NCBI GenBank assembly: GCA_014360825.1
Contig: JACIWT010000012.1
Span: 72-64,071 of the forward strand
Origin: Chloroflexota bacterium
GTDB lineage: Bacteria; Chloroflexota; Anaerolineae; UBA2200; JACIWT01
Direction of reading: 5' to 3'
Length of the DNA stretch: 64,000 nt
A program made the translations under genes and the position numbers. The notes beneath the pieces are model-generated. The model did not search any database. It saw only the letters and a list, made by a program, of their open reading frames with translations, and had not been told where the DNA came from. Shown one piece after another: positions 3,083 through 17,626 of this stretch (positions are counted from its first letter, which is position 1; each line of letters begins with the position of its first letter).

Positions 3083-3577
3083 ATGAAATGGCCATCAGCC
3101 ATCGAGAAAATACGCCGCAACCATGCTCTGGAACATGCCACGATCCACATCTTGAGCCAGCGATGTCCACGTGCTCAACTCATTGGGCACAGTGACGCTG
3201 ACGGATTTGTTATCTACGGTCACGTACCCACGGAGATCGTCGCTGCTACCGCATCCGAAGCGCTGGCACGTTTGCAAGCCGGTGAACGCGATTTAGCCGT
3301 GCACCCACGCTGTGGGACCAATTTGGCAATGGGTGCTCTTCTGACCGGGGCAACCTCATTCCTGGTGATGAAAAGCAGTGCCAAGCGGAAGATGAGTAAC
3401 CTACCCGGTGTGCTGCTGGCAACGACGTTGGCGCTAATGGCGGCACAACCGCTGGGCTTGAAAGTGCAGGAGCTCATTACCACTTCCGCTAACTTGGATA
3501 CGGCACTCATTGCGGACGTGAAGCGCTACATTCTCAGAGGTTTGACAGTTCACCGGGTCTTCGTGCACCACGAGTGA
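3083..3577 (+). CDS. Conserved hypothetical protein (His/Cys-rich, HxxEH motif)
   Basis: 164-aa ORF with no family I can recognise from sequence alone. Contains HALEHATIH and HPRCGTN, which could be metal-binding. Stop overlaps the holA start. Confidence 0.5.
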   Translation: MKWPSAIEKIRRNHALEHATIHILSQRCPRAQLIGHSDADGFVIYGHVPTEIVAATASEALARLQAGERDLAVHPRCGTNLAMGALLTGATSFLVMKSSAKRKMSNLPGVLLATTLALMAAQPLGLKVQELITTSANLDTALIADVKRYILRGLTVHRVFVHHE

Positions 3578-4584
3578 GAGCGATGTTTTATATATTGCAC
3601 GGCGAGGATGAATTCAGCCTCCACGAAGCACTGACCACAATGCGCGCGAAGATGGGTGAGCGCACGCTCGCTGACCTCAACACAACCGTGCTGGATGGCC
3701 GCAAACTTACCTTGACTGAACTGATGAACGCCTGTAATGCCATTCCTTTCGTGGCCAAACGGCGGCTGGTCATTGTGGAGAATTTCGCCTCGCGCCTCGA
3801 AGGGCCTCCACGAGGGCAGGGCAAAGCCAGGGGCGTGAAAGCAAACGATGAACTGCTTCAAGCGCTGAGGGAATATCTCCCCAAAATGCCGGAAACCACG
3901 CGACTGGTCTTCGTAGAGAACCATACTCTAAGCCCCCAGAACCCACTGTTGGAACTGGCCCAGCAAGAAAAAGGCGGGTATGTCAAAACATTTGAGCCAC
4001 CCAAGGGCGATGCGCTCACAAAGTGGATTGTGGAGCGAGTGAGAACAAAGGGCGGGGAGATCGAGGTTGTAGCAGCGACAGAACTAGCAAATTTCGTGGG
4101 TAATGACCTGAGGAAACTGGATCAAGAGTGTGAAAAACTCGTCCTTTATACCGCTGGAGAACGCACCATCACCACGGAAGATGTGTGCCAATTAGTGAGC
4201 CACGTGCAGGCCGCGAGTATCTTTACCCTGGTGGATGCCCTTGGGCATCGCGAGCGCGAACGTGCAATGCAGTTGTTACATGAGCAATTAGACCGGGATG
4301 CCACGCCCCTTTATCTGTTCTCTATGATCGTGCGCCAATTCCGCATCCTCTTACAGGTGAAAGAACTACTGGGTCATGGGCTGTCGCCAGCAGAGATTCG
4401 AGCGAAACTGGGTATTAGCAGCCAGTTTGTGGTAGACAAAGCGGTGGCGCAATCACGACAGTTTTCGATGGAGCGCTTGGAATGCATTTACCAACGCCTG
4501 GTGAACACCGACGCAGACATCAAGACGGGCTGTATGCCGGAGATACTGGCTTTGGATTTGCTTGTGGTAGACCTGTGCCGTTAG
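3574..4584 (+). CDS. holA: DNA polymerase III delta subunit
   Basis: N-terminus YILHGEDEF matches the HolA signature. 336 aa, typical length. Confidence 0.8.
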   Translation: MRAMFYILHGEDEFSLHEALTTMRAKMGERTLADLNTTVLDGRKLTLTELMNACNAIPFVAKRRLVIVENFASRLEGPPRGQGKARGVKANDELLQALREYLPKMPETTRLVFVENHTLSPQNPLLELAQQEKGGYVKTFEPPKGDALTKWIVERVRTKGGEIEVVAATELANFVGNDLRKLDQECEKLVLYTAGERTITTEDVCQLVSHVQAASIFTLVDALGHRERERAMQLLHEQLDRDATPLYLFSMIVRQFRILLQVKELLGHGLSPAEIRAKLGISSQFVVDKAVAQSRQFSMERLECIYQRLVNTDADIKTGCMPEILALDLLVVDLCR

Positions 4585-4642
4585 GGCAACAAATGGATCA
4601 GGCACCACCTCGAGCCTGATCCATTTGTGCGTAGTGAGCGAC

Positions 4643-4936
4643 TTATCTTCTGCGTTGTACTCCGAGCCAGAAATGATGGGGTGGAATATGTGGAACAGCG
4701 AGCACCCTTACCCCATTTTGCTCCAGCGTGTTCCCATTAAGTGTCATCGGGTTCACATAGCAGATGTTCGGCCGTCGACCGAATTTCTGCTCATAGCGCT
4801 GCGCTGCCGCTGTGATCTTAGTCCCCAAGTCGCGGCGCGGATCGTCGTCGAACCAGAGCAACCCTGCCTCCATCGGTGGCGCTCGCTTGCCCAATTCCAA
4901 GGTACCGGATCGATCCGTCAAAGAGGTCAAAGTCAA
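4643..4936 (-). CDS. Hypothetical small protein (WFDDD motif), last gene of the SOS-boxed operon
   Basis: 97-aa ORF. Its start overlaps the stop of the upstream ORF by 4 nt (ATGA), implying translational coupling. Shares a W-F-x-D-D motif with the ORF at 5274-5579. Confidence 0.45.
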   Translation of the reverse strand: MTLTSLTDRSGTLELGKRAPPMEAGLLWFDDDPRRDLGTKITAAAQRYEQKFGRRPNICYVNPMTLNGNTLEQNGVRVLAVPHIPPHHFWLGVQRRR

Positions 4937-5277
4937 TCCTCCCCGATTACCCGGAAATCCCGTGGGGCGCCATGCTCGACCATTGGCGGTATATAGGACG
5001 ACGGGAACATCTCACGCGGCGCCGGTGTTCCCCCTTGGATTACGATCACCGGCGGATATTCTCGCTGCCTGAGGTGGTCTTCCGCGCTCTCTTCCCGGGC
5101 TCGCATCCGGTGCGTCACAACCAGGACTAATACGCTCATCGGGATGGCGGCGATCACTCCACAGGCTACCCCTACTACCACCGCCATAGCCTCCGCGCTC
5201 ATGCGATTCCCTACCACAATGGCCAACGCCACTGCAAATACGACGCCTATCACTGCCACTGTTGCTCTACCGCTCAT
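4933..5277 (-). CDS. Hypothetical small membrane protein (two predicted TM helices)
   Basis: 114-aa ORF with two hydrophobic helices (VAVIGVVFAVALAIVVG and AVVVGVACGVIAAIPMSVLVLVV). ATGA overlaps at both ends. The plus-strand antisense ORF is low-complexity, which favours this strand. Confidence 0.5.
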   Translation of the reverse strand: MSGRATVAVIGVVFAVALAIVVGNRMSAEAMAVVVGVACGVIAAIPMSVLVLVVTHRMRAREESAEDHLRQREYPPVIVIQGGTPAPREMFPSSYIPPMVEHGAPRDFRVIGED

Positions 5278-5579
5278 GGTATCTGTTTCCTCCTGCTCTC
5301 ACACCAAGGACGTGGATCTACACCTTGGCTATCCAGAAGTTTCCCATCTACTCCCAGGGCTACGGCCACGCTCCATAACGCGGCCGCGAAACCCTCCTGA
5401 TAACCCTGTATGAACTCGTCCTCCCGCCTCATAGTCGAAACGCTCGTCCGGCATAACGCTGCCACCGAGCGAAGGATATTTGCGATATCGTCTCGGAACC
5501 AGATGTCTGTGCTCACGGTTTCACCTGCCTTCCGCCGGACGTCAGGCGGTCTCTCACTAATGTCTTCATGGGTAACCAT
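5274..5579 (-). CDS. Hypothetical small protein (WFRDD motif)
   Basis: 101-aa ORF. The annotated start overlaps the FtsK-like stop by about 67 nt, so the true start may be downstream. Weakly similar to the 4643-4936 ORF. Confidence 0.35.
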   Translation of the reverse strand: MVTHEDISERPPDVRRKAGETVSTDIWFRDDIANILRSVAALCRTSVSTMRREDEFIQGYQEGFAAALWSVAVALGVDGKLLDSQGVDPRPWCESRRKQIP

Positions 5580-6610
5580 GGCTTCACATCGCCAGCCACA
5601 GCCTTCCCCATGTTCAAATTGGTCAGTACTTGAGCGATCTCACCCTCCGAAATGAAAGCAGCCTGCAGCCTCGTTACCTGGCCCTTGGCTACTATCAGGA
5701 AATCGCCACGACCCAATAGCCGCTCCGCACCTGTTCCAGCCAGACCCGAGGCGACCTTTGCATCCTCGGGACTCGTGACGCTGCCTACAATACGCACAGG
5801 GAAATTCGATTTGACTAGGGATCCGATCACTGCCACGGTCGGCTTCTGGGTGCAGGCAACAAGATGCAAGCCCGCTTCCCGCCCCCGTTGGGTGAGCCGT
5901 GTGAGTGCTTCTTCCACTTCAGCCCCGCCCACTAAGATGAGGTCGGCGAGTTCATCGATGAAAATGACGACCCGAGGGGAATCAATTCCCATTCGATCGC
6001 GGCGTTCCATCTCGGCCACCAGGCCACGCAAGCGCTCCGGAGCAGCCCAAGGGTCGCGCACCACAGGGAATAACAGGTGGGGCAGATTATCCAAGGGTGC
6101 AAAGCCACGACCTTTGGGATCAAACAGGGCCAACTGCAGTTCTCGTTGGCGGCTGTGAAGGGCCAAGGAAATGATCATAGCCCGAGCGAGAGCGGTTTTG
6201 CCAGAGCCAGTGGTGCCGGCCAGAAGGACGTGTGCCACATCAGGGCTGGTCAGGTTGAGGAGAATGGGCACCCCAGTTTCGTCAAGCCCAAGCACTGGCG
6301 TGCAGGGTGGAACAAAGGCGAGTTGGTCGAGCAACGGAAGCAGGCGAACCGCAGCGGCTTCAACGCGGGGAATCTCCACGTTAAGGGTACCCCCATTGCG
6401 TATGATCCGGCAGGAAGGCACACCGAGGGAAAGAGCGATTTCCTCGGAGAGAGCCTGGATTCGTGCCAGACGAGTGCCTAAGGCAGGGGAAAGATGGTAG
6501 CGAACGAAGCGCGGTGTGACGACCCCTCCCCATACCTGGGTGGGGAGATGGTGGGAGGCCAGGACCATCTCAATCCGGTCGGCTTGGAATTCGAGATCTT
6601 GACGGCGCAT
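5513..6610 (-). CDS. FtsK/SpoIIIE-family DNA-translocase ATPase, truncated (beta/alpha motor only)
   Basis: Walker A LLAGTTGSGKT, Walker B VIFIDELADL, and an N-terminal stretch matching the FtsK beta domain (VTPRFVRYHLSPALGTRL...LNVEIPR). Only 365 aa: no N-terminal TM domain and no C-terminal gamma (KOPS-binding) domain. Confidence 0.8.
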   Translation of the reverse strand: MRRQDLEFQADRIEMVLASHHLPTQVWGGVVTPRFVRYHLSPALGTRLARIQALSEEIALSLGVPSCRIIRNGGTLNVEIPRVEAAAVRLLPLLDQLAFVPPCTPVLGLDETGVPILLNLTSPDVAHVLLAGTTGSGKTALARAMIISLALHSRQRELQLALFDPKGRGFAPLDNLPHLLFPVVRDPWAAPERLRGLVAEMERRDRMGIDSPRVVIFIDELADLILVGGAEVEEALTRLTQRGREAGLHLVACTQKPTVAVIGSLVKSNFPVRIVGSVTSPEDAKVASGLAGTGAERLLGRGDFLIVAKGQVTRLQAAFISEGEIAQVLTNLNMGKAVAGDVKPWLPMKTLVRDRLTSGGRQVKP

Positions 6611-6659
6611 AGTGCTCCTCCTAATTGCAAACGAATTGCGTGTCTCTGGTGGCTGGATA

Positions 6660-6712
6660 GAACAAATGTTCTATTACGGCCCCATTATAGCAGAACATTT
6701 GTTCTTTGTCAA
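6660..6712 (-). promoter_or_regulatory. Consensus sigma-70 promoter (TTGACA-17-TATAAT) with two LexA/Cheo boxes
   Basis: On the minus strand: TTGACA (plus 6707-6712), a 17-nt spacer containing GAACAAATGTTC (plus 6693-6704), TATAAT (plus 6684-6689), then a second box GAACATTTGTTC (plus 6660-6671) at the expected start site. Both boxes fit GAACN4GTTC. The FtsK-like ATG is at 6610. Confidence 0.7.
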
Positions 6713-6768
6713 GTGGAGCATGTTGAGTGCATTGAAGCGTTTGTAGACGTTGCATAGCTTGTGGTACA

Positions 6769-8076
6769 ATGGCGGTAAGTGCTTGGGCAGTGCACGACCA
6801 TATTTTAGGTTGTCGATTCTGGGTAGGCTGTTTTCAGGGGTCTGCATTGGAAATCTATTCTGTCAGTTACATTACGCGTTACATCCGCGAACTCTTTGAG
6901 GTGGATTTCACTCTCCAGGATATCTGGATAAGAGGTGAGGTTTCCAACCTGACACAGGCGCCCTCTGGACACGTCTATTTCACTCTGAAAGATGAGGCCG
7001 CGCAAATTCGCTGCGTTCTCTGGCGATCACAAGCGGCGCGCCTCACCCAGTTGCCTCGCGATGGCGATGGTGTTGTGGCCCACGGGCGCGTCAGCGTTTA
7101 CGAAGCCCAGGGAGTTTACCAATTCTACGTAGATATGGTGCAACCAGTCGGAGTGGGGTTGCTGTATCTCCAATTCGAGGCTCTTCGAAAAAAGTTAGAA
7201 TCCGAAGGACTGTTTGCACCGGAGCGAAAGCGCCCGCTACCACCCTATCCACAGCGCATTGGTGTGATAACATCACCCATCGGTGCGGCCATCCGTGATA
7301 TCCTGCATGTGCTGAGACGGCGCTACCCCATTGCTGAAGTCATCTTGGCCCCAACTTTAGTGCAAGGTGACGAAGCCCCACCACAGATTGTGGCAGCGCT
7401 CCGCGCTTTGAACGACTACCCCGACATAGAAGTGATCATTTTGGCCCGGGGAGGCGGATCCATAGAGGAATTGTGGGCATTTAATGATGAACGGGTGGCG
7501 CGAGCCATCGCCGCGTCACAGATCCCGGTGGTCACAGGAATCGGACACGAGACGGATTTCACCATCGCCGACTTCGTGGCAGACTTGCGTGCGCCAACTC
7601 CCACCGCCGCAGCAGAGATGGTTGCGCCCGAGCGCACATTAATGCTAGAGACCATCACGCGGTATGGTCAGCGCTTGGAACATCTGATGGAACAGCGAGT
7701 GCGAGAAGGCGAATTGCGCTTGGGCACACTGCGAGCGAGACTAGGGCGTGCCTCGCCCCAGGCGATACTGGAGGGATATGCGCAGCGCCTGGACGACATA
7801 ACACGGACGATGATGTCCATGATGGAACACGGCCTGAGCCTGCGCCAAGAGCGGTTGGCTGGCCGAGCGGCGCAACTCCAGAGCTTGGACCCGCAACATA
7901 TCTTGGAGCGCGGCTATGCAGTTGTATCGCGGACCGACTCGGGAGAGGTTGTACGCCGACGCGGTCAGGTTGCATCTGGGGATGGTATCCAGGTGCGAGT
8001 AAGCGATGGACACTTCAGAGCCACCGTGGACAGCAAAGAGAGTGAGCGAGGTCAAAAACAAGATGGGGAACTATAA
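6769..8076 (+). CDS. xseA: Exodeoxyribonuclease VII large subunit
   Basis: OB-fold N-terminus (VSYITRYIRELFE...IWIRGEVSN) and the ExoVII catalytic region. The annotated ATG overlaps a TACAAT -10-like hexamer, so the real start may be TTG at 6847, which has a GGGG RBS. Confidence 0.8.
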   Translation: MAVSAWAVHDHILGCRFWVGCFQGSALEIYSVSYITRYIRELFEVDFTLQDIWIRGEVSNLTQAPSGHVYFTLKDEAAQIRCVLWRSQAARLTQLPRDGDGVVAHGRVSVYEAQGVYQFYVDMVQPVGVGLLYLQFEALRKKLESEGLFAPERKRPLPPYPQRIGVITSPIGAAIRDILHVLRRRYPIAEVILAPTLVQGDEAPPQIVAALRALNDYPDIEVIILARGGGSIEELWAFNDERVARAIAASQIPVVTGIGHETDFTIADFVADLRAPTPTAAAEMVAPERTLMLETITRYGQRLEHLMEQRVREGELRLGTLRARLGRASPQAILEGYAQRLDDITRTMMSMMEHGLSLRQERLAGRAAQLQSLDPQHILERGYAVVSRTDSGEVVRRRGQVASGDGIQVRVSDGHFRATVDSKESERGQKQDGEL

Positions 8077-13169: not shown

Positions 13170-14018
13170 TTAATCCAACCTCTGGAGTACACCCCGGATG
13201 AGCGCAGACAATCGGATAGCGAGTTGCTTCCCTGCCTCTAGAACTTCTTCGTGGGTCAGTTTGCCGCCGCCATTGATGACGTTGCTGATACCCGAGATGC
13301 CTAACACGCACATCCCCATATGGCGAGCCACAGTGACCTCGTTAACTGTGGACATACCCACTGCATCTGCTCCAATCAAGCGCAAGAAACGAATGTCAGC
13401 AGGGGTTTCGAAACTGGGTCCCCCTAACATGATGTATATTCCTTGATGGAGAACGATGCCTTTGCTTTTGGCAACCTCGACGGCAAGACGCTGGAGTTCG
13501 GGGTCATAGGCTTGCGACATATCGGGGAAGCGGGGACCTAGTTGGGGGTCATTGGGACCGCGAAGGGGATTCAACCCCGCCATGCCAATTAAATTGATGT
13601 GGTCAGTAATAAGCATCAAATCGCCAGCATTGAACCGGTAGTTCAATCCCCCAGCAGCATTGGTAACAATCAGGGTTTTCACGCCCAGGAAGTGCATTAC
13701 TCGAATGGGGAACGTAGTCTGTTGCATCGAATAGCCCTCATAAAAGTGGGCTCGACCGCGCATAACAAGCACTTCCTTTTCTTCCAGTTTGCCAATCACT
13801 AGGTCGCCAGGGTGTCCCTCCACAGTCGCAACTGGAAAATGCGGGATCTGATGGTAGGGGATGATATCTGGGTCCTGTACTTCCTCTGCCAGTCCTGCCA
13901 AGCCAGAGCCAAGGATGATGCCCACAGTAGGGTGATATGTAATCCGCGCGCGTAGGAAGTCCGTCGCTTCTTGGTACTCTGCCCGGGAGGGCGATTGAAG
14001 TATCACGTCCGCATTCAT
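13170..14018 (-). CDS. Purine nucleoside phosphorylase (PNP/MTAP family)
   Basis: PNP-I family motifs GIILGSGLAGLAE, VMRGRAHFYEG and LGGPSFETPAD. Confidence 0.8.
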   Translation of the reverse strand: MNADVILQSPSRAEYQEATDFLRARITYHPTVGIILGSGLAGLAEEVQDPDIIPYHQIPHFPVATVEGHPGDLVIGKLEEKEVLVMRGRAHFYEGYSMQQTTFPIRVMHFLGVKTLIVTNAAGGLNYRFNAGDLMLITDHINLIGMAGLNPLRGPNDPQLGPRFPDMSQAYDPELQRLAVEVAKSKGIVLHQGIYIMLGGPSFETPADIRFLRLIGADAVGMSTVNEVTVARHMGMCVLGISGISNVINGGGKLTHEEVLEAGKQLAIRLSALIRGVLQRLD

Positions 14019-14932
14019 CCCTTGGCCCGGGGGTGCGCCTCATTGTAAACTTCTCGCAAGCGCTCGCTGCTCACTTGGGTGTAGACCTGGGTTGTGGCAA
14101 TGTTTGCGTGGCCGAGGAGTTCTTGAACGTTTCGCAGATCCGCGCCCCCGCTGAGCATATGTGTGGCAAACGAATGGCGCAGGGTATGAGGAGTTACCGG
14201 CGCGGTGATGCCAGCCTCTTGAACGTAGTTCTTAACAATGAGCCATAGTCCCTGGCGGGTCAGGCGTTGACCTCGCTGGTTAAGAAAGATAGCCCTTTCA
14301 TCGGGGTCCCTGAGCAAACGGATGCGTCCACGTTCCATGTATTCTTCTAAGGCTCTTGCCGCTCGGTCGTGGATTGGAATAACGCGTTCCTTGTTTCCCT
14401 TGCCGAAGCAGCGCACGCTGGCGGAAGCCAAATCCACATCTCCTACATTGAGGGCCACCAATTCGCTCACGCGCATCCCCGTGGCATAGAGCAGTTCCAA
14501 AATGGCTTTGTCGCGCAGGCCAGCGGCGGTTTTATCTTGGTTGGGAGCATCGAGTAGTCTCTCGATATCCTGAATAGAGATCGCCTTGGGAAGATACTTT
14601 TTCACCCGCGGGGAATCCAAGGTTGCCGTTGGGTCCTCTTGGATTTGCCCCTCCGTGTTCAGGAAATGGAAGAAAGACTTGATGGCCGCCACCTTGCGGG
14701 CTACAGTGGACGAAGCGTACTCGCGTTCGCTCTTGAGATACAAAATGTATTCCATCAAATGGTCTTTGCTTATCTGCGCCCAAGCATTGACACCGGGTTC
14801 GCCCCTGCGCTGGATCCAGCGCAAGAACTGGCTGAGGTCATTTTTATAGGCCACACGGGTATTCTCTGAATACCCCTTTTCTACCTTCAGAGAGGCGAGG
14901 AAACTATCCACTTGCTCCTGCATGATACGCAC
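14015..14932 (-). CDS. xerD: Tyrosine recombinase XerC/XerD
   Basis: N-terminal SAM-like domain (FLASLKVEKGYSENTRVAY) and a C-terminal catalytic domain with the R...HxxR...Y pattern (LRHSFATHML...TQVYTQV). 305 aa. Confidence 0.8.
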   Translation of the reverse strand: MRIMQEQVDSFLASLKVEKGYSENTRVAYKNDLSQFLRWIQRRGEPGVNAWAQISKDHLMEYILYLKSEREYASSTVARKVAAIKSFFHFLNTEGQIQEDPTATLDSPRVKKYLPKAISIQDIERLLDAPNQDKTAAGLRDKAILELLYATGMRVSELVALNVGDVDLASASVRCFGKGNKERVIPIHDRAARALEEYMERGRIRLLRDPDERAIFLNQRGQRLTRQGLWLIVKNYVQEAGITAPVTPHTLRHSFATHMLSGGADLRNVQELLGHANIATTQVYTQVSSERLREVYNEAHPRAKG

Positions 14933-15154: not shown

Positions 15155-15197
15155 TTGCTAAACTGGCATTCTTCGTGTATAATTAGAACAAAATTTC
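15155..15197 (+). promoter_or_regulatory. recA promoter (TTGCTA-17-TATAAT) with an adjacent SOS-box-like GAACAAAATTTC
   Basis: -35 at 15155-15160 and -10 at 15178-15183. Box at 15186-15197 has one mismatch to GAACN4GTTC and sits over the predicted start site. Confidence 0.55.
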
Positions 15198-15323: not shown

Positions 15324-16460
15324 ATGGGCGCCACAGAAGGTAAGGATAAGGCACTGGAGACGACATTGGCCCACTTACGAAAACGCTATGGTGACGGTGT
15401 AATTATGAAACTGGGCGAGTCTACCAGCCTGGACGCAGAGGCGATACCAACCGGTTCGATCTCATTAGACATTGCCCTGGGTATCGGAGGCGTCCCCAGA
15501 GGTCGGGTTACCGAAATCTACGGCCCCGAATCCTCGGGCAAGACGACGTTGGCCCAGCATATCATCGCCGAGGCACAGAAGGCGGGAGGGGTCGCAGCGT
15601 TTATCGATGTTGAACACGCCCTGGATCCTGGATATGCCGCTAAATGCGGTGTGGACGTAGATAATTTGTACATCTCCCAGCCAGACACAGGGGAACAGGC
15701 CCTAGAAATTGCCGAAGCCTTAGTGCGTAGCGGTGCAGTGGATGTAATCGTCATTGATTCTGTAGCTGCTCTCGTTCCGCGAGCGGAGATCGAGGGCGAA
15801 ATGGGCGATTCACACATGGGTCTGCAGGCCCGCCTGATGTCCCAAGCGCTGCGCAAACTGGTCGGAGCGATCAAGCGTTCTAACACCGCGGTGATTTTCA
15901 CCAATCAACTTCGCCAGAAAATCGGCGTTGTGTTCGGCAACCCCGAGACTACCACTGGGGGCAACGCGCTGAAGTTCTACGCTGCAGTCCGCTTAGATAT
16001 GCGCCGCATGGAGGGCATCAAGCAAGGTGGTGATGTAATAGGTAATCGCACGAAAGTGCGAGTAAAAAAGAACAAACTGGCCCCGCCCTTTAAATCTGCC
16101 GAGTTCGATATCATGTATGATGAGGGCATTTCCCGCGAGGGTGATGTGCTGGATGTGGCCACGGAATTGGGCATCGTCGAAAAGCGGGGCGCTCATTATG
16201 CCTTCGGCGAGGTCCGTTTAGGTCAAGGGCGGGAAAACGTGAGGCTCTTCCTCAAAGAGAATCCCGACATCACCGATGAAATTGAGGCGAAGATACGCGC
16301 AACCGTGGGGCTTCCGCCCAAAGGCGAAAGCGGCCCTGCGCGAGTCTCCGCAGCGCTTGGCAAATTGCCGAAGGCCGAAATCAGCGATGAGGGCGAGCCT
16401 CTTGCCGAAGAGGGGTTATCTTACGAGGACGATTTCGAGGACGAAAATACCGATCTCTAG
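15324..16460 (+). CDS. recA: Recombinase A
   Basis: [13 protein letters not shown] Walker A and full-length RecA homology. GGAAGGAG RBS. Confidence 0.97.
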
Positions 16461-16975: not shown

Positions 16976-17626
16976 ATGCCGAAAGTCACAGCCCTGAAGA
17001 GGCAAAAAAAGAATGCTCACCGGGTGAATGTGTATTTAGATGGGGAATATGCCTTTGCTCTTCAGGATATTGTGGCCATATCACTGAAAGTGGGGCAGGA
17101 GTTATCGCCCAACGACATTCTTACCTTGAAAACACAGGATGTTTTTCAGCGCGAGTACGATCGCGTTCTGCATTACCTGAGTTACCGCCCGCGTAGCGTA
17201 CGCGAAGTGCGGCAATACCTTGCTGACAGGGATGTGGAAAGCGGCATTGCAGATAACATCGTAACTCGACTACAGCGGGCTGGCCTATTAGACGATGCAG
17301 CATTTGCTCGATCCTGGGTAGAGAGCCGAGATTCGCTCAGACCTCGAGGCCGCTACCTATTGGCCCGAGAGCTGCGCCAGAAGGGTGTACCTGATGAAAT
17401 CATCCAAGAGGCTTTGCAATCCGTGGAGGAGGAGAGGAGCGCCTACAGAGCAGGGGTAAACCGTGTGGGTGCACTGCAGGGGATGGATTATCCAACCTTT
17501 CGGCGACGGTTGGGCGATTTCCTGCACCGCCGAGGCTTTGGCTACGAAATCATCCGGGAAACCGTGCAGCGCCTCTGGCAAGAAATGCAGGAGGGCAAAC
17601 TCGGCTTACAATCCAAACACTCCTAG
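16976..17626 (+). CDS. recX: RecA regulator RecX
   Basis: 216 aa with RecX helical repeats (VNVYLDGEYAFAL...). Lies downstream of recA. Confidence 0.75.
   Translation: MPKVTALKRQKKNAHRVNVYLDGEYAFALQDIVAISLKVGQELSPNDILTLKTQDVFQREYDRVLHYLSYRPRSVREVRQYLADRDVESGIADNIVTRLQRAGLLDDAAFARSWVESRDSLRPRGRYLLARELRQKGVPDEIIQEALQSVEEERSAYRAGVNRVGALQGMDYPTFRRRLGDFLHRRGFGYEIIRETVQRLWQEMQEGKLGLQSKHS

Follow-up and report, generated by a model that had tools for sequence, protein, structure and literature searches.

We analysed a predicted LexA-controlled operon encoding an FtsK-like motor and three small proteins in a 64,000-nucleotide stretch of a Chloroflexota genome (contig JACIWT010000012.1, assembly GCA_014360825.1), which as a whole is called the window here. 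The operon occupies positions 4643-6712 on the minus strand and is set between the housekeeping genes holA and xseA. Its first gene encodes a 365-aa FtsK-like ATPase (5513-6610, minus strand), identified by matches in Pfam, NCBIfam and the PDB and referred to below as the motor. On the same strand follow the open reading frames (ORFs) ORF2 (5274-5516), ORF3 (4933-5277) and ORF4 (4643-4873), of which ORF3 encodes a protein of 114 aa with two transmembrane (TM) helices.

At least the first three genes share overlapping stop and start codons. An earlier reading of this DNA from its letters alone (hereafter the sequence-only reading) had described the small ORFs as 101, 114 and 97 aa long and chained by ATGA overlaps. 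The length of ORF3 and the true ATGA overlap at the ORF2/ORF3 junction (ORF3 ATG at 5277) are retained in our analysis, but the remaining lengths and junctions had to be revised. The longest frame of ORF2 starts at 5579, and homologue alignment points to the GTG at 5516, giving a protein of probably 80 aa and a GTGA overlap with the stop codon of the motor gene. Homologues of ORF4 start at the position of ATG 4873, and near-identical database proteins are called at 76 aa; alternative TTG starts lie at 4936 and 4930. Most likely ORF4 begins at this ATG, with probably 76 aa and a gap of ~60 nt to ORF3 rather than an overlap.

Promoter, operators and encoded proteins

The operon is preceded by a sigma-70-type promoter (6684-6712, minus strand) with TTGACA at 6712-6707, a 17-nt spacer and TGn-TATAAT at 6689-6684. 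It agrees with the consensus in 12 of 12 positions, includes the upstream TGn, and is the sole TTGACA-N17-TATAAT match with at most one mismatch in 64 kb, where 0.07 are expected. Two LexA boxes of the Cheo type accompany it. Box 1, AGAACAAATGTTCT (6693-6704), lies within the promoter spacer, and box 2, AGAACATTTGTTCT (6660-6671), just 3' of the -10 element at about +6 to +17, its centre 33 bp from that of box 1. The boxes, GAACAAATGTTC and GAACATTTGTTC, are the only exact GAACN4GTTC sites in the window (0.76 expected), and both show the extended form AGAAC-N4-GTTCT. Both predicted operators are so positioned as to block the promoter, with box 1 inside the spacer and box 2 at the start of transcription. 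This bears out the sequence-only reading, which had reported a perfect consensus promoter with two LexA boxes.

The same reading had seen in the recA promoter the same design, with that of the operon the more stringent. The promoter of recA (15324-16460) has the form TTGCTA-17-TATAAT and is followed by a Cheo box, AGAACAAAATTTCT (15186-15197), with one mismatch. The designs are similar, but they are not identical: recA has a single imperfect box, which makes its operator a related and weaker version of that of the operon. Downstream of recA lies recX (16976-17626). LexA of Dehalococcoides (D. ethenogenes), which belongs to the Chloroflexi, is reported to use the Gram-positive LexA binding sequence (Fernandez de Henestrosa 2002, as cited in PMC4951493), and PMC4951493 states this motif as GAAC-N4-GTTC.

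The motor matches the Pfam domains FtsK_alpha (PF17854, residues 3-81, E 3.8e-10) and FtsK_SpoIIIE (PF01580, E 2.7e-32), and nothing else above threshold. Pfam detects no FtsK_gamma domain in it, and the protein stops ~35 residues past the beta domain with a variable basic tail. It also has no TM segment or N-terminal hydrophobic region: the alpha domain begins at residue 3, the ORF cannot be extended upstream, and a strong Shine-Dalgarno sequence, AGGAGG (6617-6622, minus strand; read from the sequence), stands 6 nt ahead of the ATG. With only the alpha and beta domains and no hydrophobic N-terminus, the motor conforms to its earlier description as a 365-aa FtsK-family protein without membrane anchor or gamma domain.

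Both the Walker A (GTTGSGKT) and the Walker B (IFIDELAD) motif are present, with GTTGSGKT and DELAD invariant across the family. Among proteins of solved structure, the FtsK motor of P. aeruginosa comes closest (2IUU, E 5e-50). Matches to EccC and YukB (~1e-13) and to coupling proteins (~5e-7) are weaker, and the motor therefore derives from true DNA translocases. Its identity to canonical FtsK motors is ~35%, and its matches in the plasmid database are ordinary FtsKs at the same level. Compared with FtsK, the motor lacks the TM region, the linker, the gamma domain and ~45 residues after the EMERR motif, and it carries TQKP for TQRP. The Lys replacing the Arg of this motif (K256; window 5840-5850) is invariant in all 20 aligned family members. 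Type VII EssC/EccC ATPases combine two TM helices with three tandem FtsK-like ATPase domains and are linked to ESX/Ess genes; such an identity was rejected on the basis of the single ATPase domain of the motor, a score of 53.7 against a cut-off of 778 bits and the lack of ESX genes nearby. PADLOC matches the motor only to the FtsK-like portions of SspH and mad8 and gives nothing above threshold for the products of ORF2, ORF3 and ORF4; a known anti-phage defence system was likewise rejected, as only a domain is shared and the full protein set is absent.

ORF2, ORF3 and ORF4 have no match above threshold in Pfam, NCBIfam, PHROGs or PADLOC, and none of them resembles a gamma domain, a LysM domain or a known SOS division inhibitor. 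By its motifs (DxWFR[ED]DI..., YxxGFxxAL) ORF2 is predicted to form two helices. ORF3 consists of two conserved TM helices, a basic juxtamembrane stretch and a tail of ~50 aa that is predicted to be cytoplasmic. Residues F14, L18, G23, R25, M26, S27, A30, M31, G36, C39, G40 and P46 of the TM region are invariant, and the tail conserves the motifs YPPV(V/I)V and RxF(R/T)VIG. An AlphaFold2 model places helices at 3-24, 28-43 and 47-71 and leaves the tail disordered, with low confidence outside the TM helices. The tail may be a docking peptide for the motor or ORF4, and its predicted disorder in isolation is as expected of such a peptide. No match to ORF3 was found among deposited phage genomes.

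ORF4 is modelled confidently (predicted local distance difference test score 91.7) as a compact alpha+beta domain with the order beta-alpha-beta-alpha-beta3, and its invariant residues are G, W, D, D, Y, G, C, Y, H, W and G. It has no informative structural neighbour, and a profile search against the PDB returned only chance-level matches. Pfam gives no gamma-domain match for ORF2 or ORF4, and the ORF4 model is unlike a winged helix. The ORF3 and ORF4 families comprise 1231 and 771 proteins, respectively, all annotated as hypothetical and without a Pfam domain; the named ones come from Chloroflexota.

Conservation, lexA linkage and mobile-element relatives

A scan with one genome per species yielded 415 related loci in Chloroflexota. 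The best 80 of these 415 are from metagenome-assembled genomes (MAGs) labelled Anaerolineae, Anaerolineales, Caldilineae, Ardenticatenia, Chloroflexia or Chloroflexota. Using tblastn and iterated hidden Markov models built from the window proteins, we analysed a set of 84 non-redundant loci, that is 83 fetched loci plus the window, with one duplicate dropped. More than 100 proteins were found in a protein search with the motor. They are 342-424 aa long (mostly 345-390) and share 59-69% identity with it, apart from one match at 98%; those that carry names are from Chloroflexi or Anaerolineales. Looking up the exact sequence of the motor retrieved no contig. Within the motor family identity amounts to 56-70% and the catalytic motifs are intact. 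Of these loci, 69 extend at least 1 kb downstream of the motor, and ORF3 comes next in all 69; ORF4 is found in 33 and ORF2 in 15 of 63 loci. The sequence-only reading had named co-occurrence across Chloroflexota genomes as a check and a lack of conservation of the small ORFs as a ground for refutation; the small ORFs are conserved, to different degrees.

Retrieval from the side of ORF4 gave the same trio in three of three contigs, convergent with holA and with a box 33-59 nt before the motor start codon. Therefore at least one lineage has kept the position of the cassette beside holA; between lineages the genomic location differs. Several single MAGs hold two cassettes (seven pairs of loci), often one copy with lexA and a Cys-rich protein and the other without. 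The genome of the window may likewise contain a second, lexA-linked cassette elsewhere.

A LexA protein (LexA_DNA_bind and Peptidase_S24) is encoded upstream of the motor in 47 of 70 loci, in many of them in two copies. The Cys-rich protein (~145 aa, eight conserved Cys) matches no Pfam family and is encoded upstream of the motor in 35 of 70 loci. It shows the pattern C-x12-C-x14-CxxC-x6-C ... C-x13-CxxC and lies between the second lexA gene (lexA-2) and the motor. In locus L001 the tandem lexA pair spans 4169-5544 and the Cys-rich protein 5552-5980. Such pairs occur in many loci (L006, L010, L012, L013 and others), and the Cys-rich protein in 37 further loci; it is absent from the window. The commonest gene order is box, lexA, box, box, lexA-2, Cys-rich protein, motor, ORF3, ORF4. 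In 8 of 22 loci with two lexA genes the AAG cleavage motif of the operon-proximal paralogue is replaced by AAS, and this protein may be cleaved differently or not at all.

We found 172 exact boxes in 884 kb of related loci, 152 of which fall between -250 and +30 of the starts of lexA, Cys-rich-protein or motor genes. Their flanks widen the palindrome to TAGAAC-N4-GTTCTA. At least one exact box lies upstream in 66 of 70 loci and at least two in 54. In all 54 double-box loci a TTGAC -35 element stands directly before box 1, and in 46 a TATAAT-like -10 element follows box 1 and is followed in turn by box 2; the spacing of the boxes in the relatives is 22-35 bp, with a mode of 27-29 bp. The window promoter thus represents the standard operator design of the family. 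The same box also precedes the lexA genes themselves, as expected for autoregulation. This agrees with the earlier proposal that GAACN4GTTC is the local LexA motif. LexA control of the operon, for which binding in this organism is predicted from sequence comparison, is well supported because the promoter/operator layout recurs in the 54 related loci, boxes precede lexA, and lexA is often the next gene upstream.

Relatives of the motor also occur on mobile elements. A scan of IMG/VR identified 12 contigs with a motor at 43-56% identity (436-475 aa in the four measured), and in 11 of the 12 an ORF3 homologue is encoded directly downstream. No Cheo box accompanies the pair on any of these contigs, and genes for LexA, the Cys-rich protein and ORF4 are missing from all of them. 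Their neighbouring genes encode a tyrosine integrase, ParA-like, ParB-like and other partition proteins, a primase-helicase, a Sak4-like AAA_24 protein, DUF5131 and DNA methyltransferases, and there are large proteins similar to minor tail proteins. From this gene content the contigs, which are classed as viral, are temperate-phage-like or integrative elements, and they share no genes other than the motor and ORF3. At ~30% identity, both TM helices, the PPVVV strand and the C-terminal RxF(T/R)VIG motif are retained in the ORF3 proteins of the elements. The element motors are ~70-110 aa longer at the C terminus, where no domain was detected.

The element genes have no true counterpart in the 84 chromosomal loci, where the only matches are a methyltransferase in one locus and xerD of the window; integrase, replication, partition or other transfer genes were not found in these loci. 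We rooted a neighbour-joining tree on more distant viral FtsK-like proteins; copies from the elements branch at its base, and the LexA-linked chromosomal loci form a nested clade. The tree carries no support values, and its topology is only suggestive. The motor-ORF3 pair probably stems from a mobile-element DNA-transfer motor. In a history that agrees with the tree, an element-borne motor and anchor pair would have been recruited into the SOS regulon and would then have gained ORF4, the Cys-rich protein and the lexA paralogue.

One suggestion of the sequence-only reading was a remnant of a LexA-controlled mobile-element transfer module. The pairs of motor and 2-TM protein on contigs with integrase, ParA/ParB and primase genes agree with the mobile-element part of this suggestion, but the cassette is a conserved chromosomal unit with housekeeping flanks and not a decayed remnant. 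The GC content of the locus is unremarkable and host-like, and there is no island signature.

Proposed role and competing explanations

We propose that the operon encodes a LexA-repressed, two-component and membrane-tethered pump for double-stranded DNA (dsDNA), which likely clears DNA at septa after damage. As a whole we give this proposal about an even chance: our confidence in the anatomy and regulation is high, that in the cellular role moderate to low. In the undamaged cell two LexA dimers, one at the spacer and one at the transcription start, would silence a very strong promoter. Upon damage, RecA-stimulated cleavage of LexA would release a sharp burst of all four proteins together. The motor would form a hexameric ring on dsDNA, its presumed substrate, and translocate it, and the cytoplasmic tail of ORF3 would hold the motor at the membrane, supplying the missing anchor. 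Motor and ORF3 would then make up a split, gamma-less FtsK/SpoIIIE-like pump that, lacking the gamma domain, would therefore neither read FtsK-orienting polar sequences (KOPS) nor activate XerD. ORF4, and ORF2 where present, would be SOS-specific accessories. Cultured members of the host Chloroflexota classes form multicellular filaments, a habit that we assume for the source organisms as well. When damage delays replication and segregation, the pump would remove or move chromosomal DNA caught at or across closing septa, and we infer septum clearing as the most economical reading of its role.

Several points weigh against this proposal. Contact between the motor and ORF3 is deduced only from the adjacency of their genes, and there is no gamma domain or known DNA-recognition partner to choose the DNA or the direction. 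Induction and pump activity of the family members are predictions from sequence, and the Lys in the TQRP motif and the ~45 residues missing from the beta domain could mean that the motor activity differs. ORF4, ORF2 and the Cys-rich protein are without an assignable role. Finally, the mobile-element ancestry fits DNA export or transfer at least as well as septum clearing.

FtsK itself provides a precedent. In E. coli, ftsK is transcribed from the SOS promoter dinH and raised after DNA damage (PMC4080785). Both cases comprise an FtsK-family dsDNA translocase under LexA control, which here is predicted. E. coli FtsK, however, is a single essential polypeptide of 147 kDa with an N-terminal TM domain, linker and gamma domain, and its SOS promoter also serves normal division, whereas the cassette combines a 365-aa motor with a separate 2-TM partner, a double operator and extra small proteins. 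In B. subtilis, the membrane-anchored SpoIIIE and the soluble SftA are accessory FtsK-like pumps that rescue septum-trapped DNA, also after damage. They differ from the cassette in having gamma domains and in being single polypeptides, and to our knowledge neither has been reported to be LexA-regulated or paired with a dedicated 2-TM protein.

A possible, though unlikely, alternative is damage-induced DNA transfer between cells, in which motor and ORF3 would pump dsDNA across the septal membrane between filament neighbours or cells and deliver an undamaged copy for recombinational repair. Such a motor would be TraB-like and the system a bacterial counterpart of the UV-induced archaeal Ced system. 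The multicellular filaments formed by cultured members of the host classes speak for this reading. Streptomyces TraB is an FtsK-like hexameric dsDNA pump of plasmids and actinomycete integrative and conjugative elements in a mycelial bacterium, where it acts with small membrane (Spd) proteins between compartments (PMC4447253, PMC5365140). Transfer is favoured by the findings that the closest non-SOS relatives of the motor and its 2-TM partner are found on elements with integrase, ParA/ParB, primase-helicase and Sak4-like genes, where a lone FtsK-like motor corresponds to Streptomyces-type conjugation, and that these element copies are basal in the tree. TraB is a large single protein and its membrane association resides within the same polypeptide. 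A C-terminal motif of TraB recognises the clt locus (PMC5365140). In the cassette motor, whose tail is too short and variable for a judgement, neither a clt-type recognition domain nor a winged helix-turn-helix was detected; transfer-origin repeats were not found either, although no search was aimed at clt-like repeats. The window copy departs from TraB in being chromosomal (holA-xseA), predicted to be LexA-controlled and without rep, int or spd, the element setting being confined to the 12 IMG/VR contigs.

The crenarchaeal Ced system (CedA, CedA1, CedA2, CedB) combines a damage-induced ATPase with small membrane proteins and moves chromosomal DNA across membranes for repair (PMC11868833, PMC9905601). 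This damage-induced importer of the Sulfolobales speaks for transfer between cells. CedB, however, belongs to the VirB4/HerA branch and matches the motor at E 0.003, a generic P-loop likeness only; Ced regulation is archaeal (TFB3), and no Ced component is homologous to ORF2, ORF3 or ORF4. Transfer between cells is further disfavoured by the lack of linked pilus or adhesion genes and of other transfer genes in the chromosomal cassettes, and the tree that would speak for it has no support values. We judge unlikely, too, the related proposal of a domesticated conjugation-type dsDNA pump, switched by LexA, that passes chromosomal DNA between neighbouring cells or filaments as a repair template and in which ORF4 and the Cys-rich protein would be DNA-handling or gating parts.

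Rather improbable is an SOS division checkpoint, in which ORF3 would inhibit the divisome in the manner of SidA, DidA, YneA, SosA or ChiZ and delay septation while the motor clears DNA. These proteins and DivS are small LexA-regulated membrane proteins that inhibit division, and yneA and sosA of Firmicutes adjoin lexA. ORF3 is a small membrane protein under predicted LexA control, the cassette adjoins lexA in many relatives, and the unusually conserved TM helices with their many invariant residues would suit a specific intramembrane target. The known inhibitors, however, have a single TM helix and an extracytoplasmic, often LysM-containing domain or are very short, whereas ORF3 has two TM helices, a tail on the cytoplasmic side and neither a LysM domain nor sequence similarity to them. 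It is always paired with an FtsK-like motor, even on mobile elements without LexA boxes. The sequence-only reading had offered a division-inhibitor module as a candidate role, the 2-TM protein resembling SidA/YneA/SosA-type inhibitors in size and topology; this is not supported. Because the pair is kept without LexA, because of the topology and because similarity to inhibitors is lacking, ORF3 is better explained as an obligate partner of the motor, although the two roles are not mutually exclusive.

It is improbable that the cassette is a selfish or decaying mobile-element fragment, a leftover transfer module silenced by LexA and without host function. Mobile-element relatives do exist, the location of the cassette varies between lineages, and some genomes carry two copies. 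Against it speak the number of loci, 415 at the species level, the 56-70% identity of the proteins and their unbroken catalytic motifs. ORF3 is kept in every locus that extends far enough, and genes for integrase, replication or partition functions are absent from the 84 chromosomal loci. The cassette also lies within a housekeeping, syntenic neighbourhood of host-like GC content and behind an elaborately conserved promoter-operator design.

We consider it quite improbable that the operon is a suicide, lysis or defence module triggered by damage or phage, with ORF3 as a holin-like or 2-TM effector and the FtsK-like ATPase as a sensor or motor. The SOS response is a common signal for phage induction, ORF3 shows sub-threshold matches to a holin family (E 0.05) and, in PADLOC, to a 2-TM effector (E 0.09), and the motor resembles the FtsK-like modules of SspH and mad8. 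Yet every ORF3 match remains below threshold, ORF3 has no counterpart in deposited phage genomes, and the motor matches reach no further than the FtsK domain held in common. Neither an endolysin nor a nuclease nor another defence partner is linked to the cassette, and the temperate-element-like contigs that carry the pair argue against an anti-phage role. Finally, that the motor is the housekeeping FtsK of the organism, with its membrane domain encoded separately, is on the evidence of the window and the related loci very improbable in spite of its FtsK-like domain and the membrane partner encoded beside it, because double-operator repression would keep the promoter off in normal growth, the gamma domain is missing although xerD lies 7.4 kb away and some genomes hold two copies, and because its identity to canonical FtsK motors is low.

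The arrangement in many relatives, not in the window, in which a second lexA paralogue heads the cassette behind LexA boxes, resembles the LexA2-headed imuA-imuB-dnaE2 mutagenesis cassette of Proteobacteria. The cargo there consists of polymerases, here of a translocase and membrane proteins. Literature searches combining LexA or SOS with FtsK and Chloroflexi or Anaerolineae returned nothing relevant, and we found no paper on the cassette. The sequence-only reading had stated that no SOS-regulon member of this composition is described; this agrees with our search for the cassette as such, but E. coli ftsK is already SOS-driven from dinH. Membership of SOS regulons and FtsK-family translocases are thus known as kinds. 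What appears undescribed is the split architecture with an obligate 2-TM partner, the lexA paralogue and Cys-rich protein in many relatives, the conserved double-operator promoter and the apparent mobile-element origin.

SOS regulons have been mapped in few phyla, and for Chloroflexota we found nothing beyond the LexA motif itself. In the Anaerolineae, Caldilineae, Ardenticatenia and Thermoflexia loci examined, the cassette looks to be among the most consistently LexA-boxed units, physically linked to lexA in many of them, and it is probably core to the handling of DNA damage in these abundant, mostly uncultured, filamentous bacteria. It would represent an FtsK motor working as a split two-gene machine and probably exemplifies the recruitment of a DNA pump from mobile elements into a stress regulon of the host. 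Our analysis also defines three widespread unannotated families, namely ORF3, ORF4 and the Cys-rich protein, together with a dedicated LexA paralogue. The cassette is a candidate for how multicellular filaments treat chromosomes caught in septa, or possibly share DNA, after damage; if DNA were indeed passed between cells or filaments, the archaeal Ced system would have a bacterial analogue wired to the SOS response.

Flanking features of the window

Downstream of the operon, holA (3574-4584, plus strand; TIGR01128, E 7e-77) is convergent with ORF4. Between the stop codons of the two genes lies a strong hairpin (4586-4630; dG -29.3 kcal/mol, z -5.1 against shuffled sequences), a 14-bp perfect inverted repeat of CAAATGGATCAGGC and GCCTGATCCATTTG. 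It has a T-run on neither strand and is likely a bidirectional terminator that closes the operon.

The xerD gene (14015-14932, minus strand; TIGR02225, E 1e-110) adjoins a purine-nucleoside phosphorylase gene, and it accounts for the integrase-like match in the window, which is no mobile-element gene. The presence of xerD implies a Xer/dif system, in which XerD normally requires the gamma domain of FtsK; the operon motor does not have this domain.

On the other side of the operon the divergent xseA gene (6769/6847-8076, plus strand; TIGR00237, E 3e-149) probably starts at TTG 6847 rather than at ATG 6769, as the family model aligns from residue 31. It apparently has a promoter of its own, TTGTAG-18-TGgTACAAT (6743-6772), which faces away from the operon promoter and does not overlap the LexA boxes.

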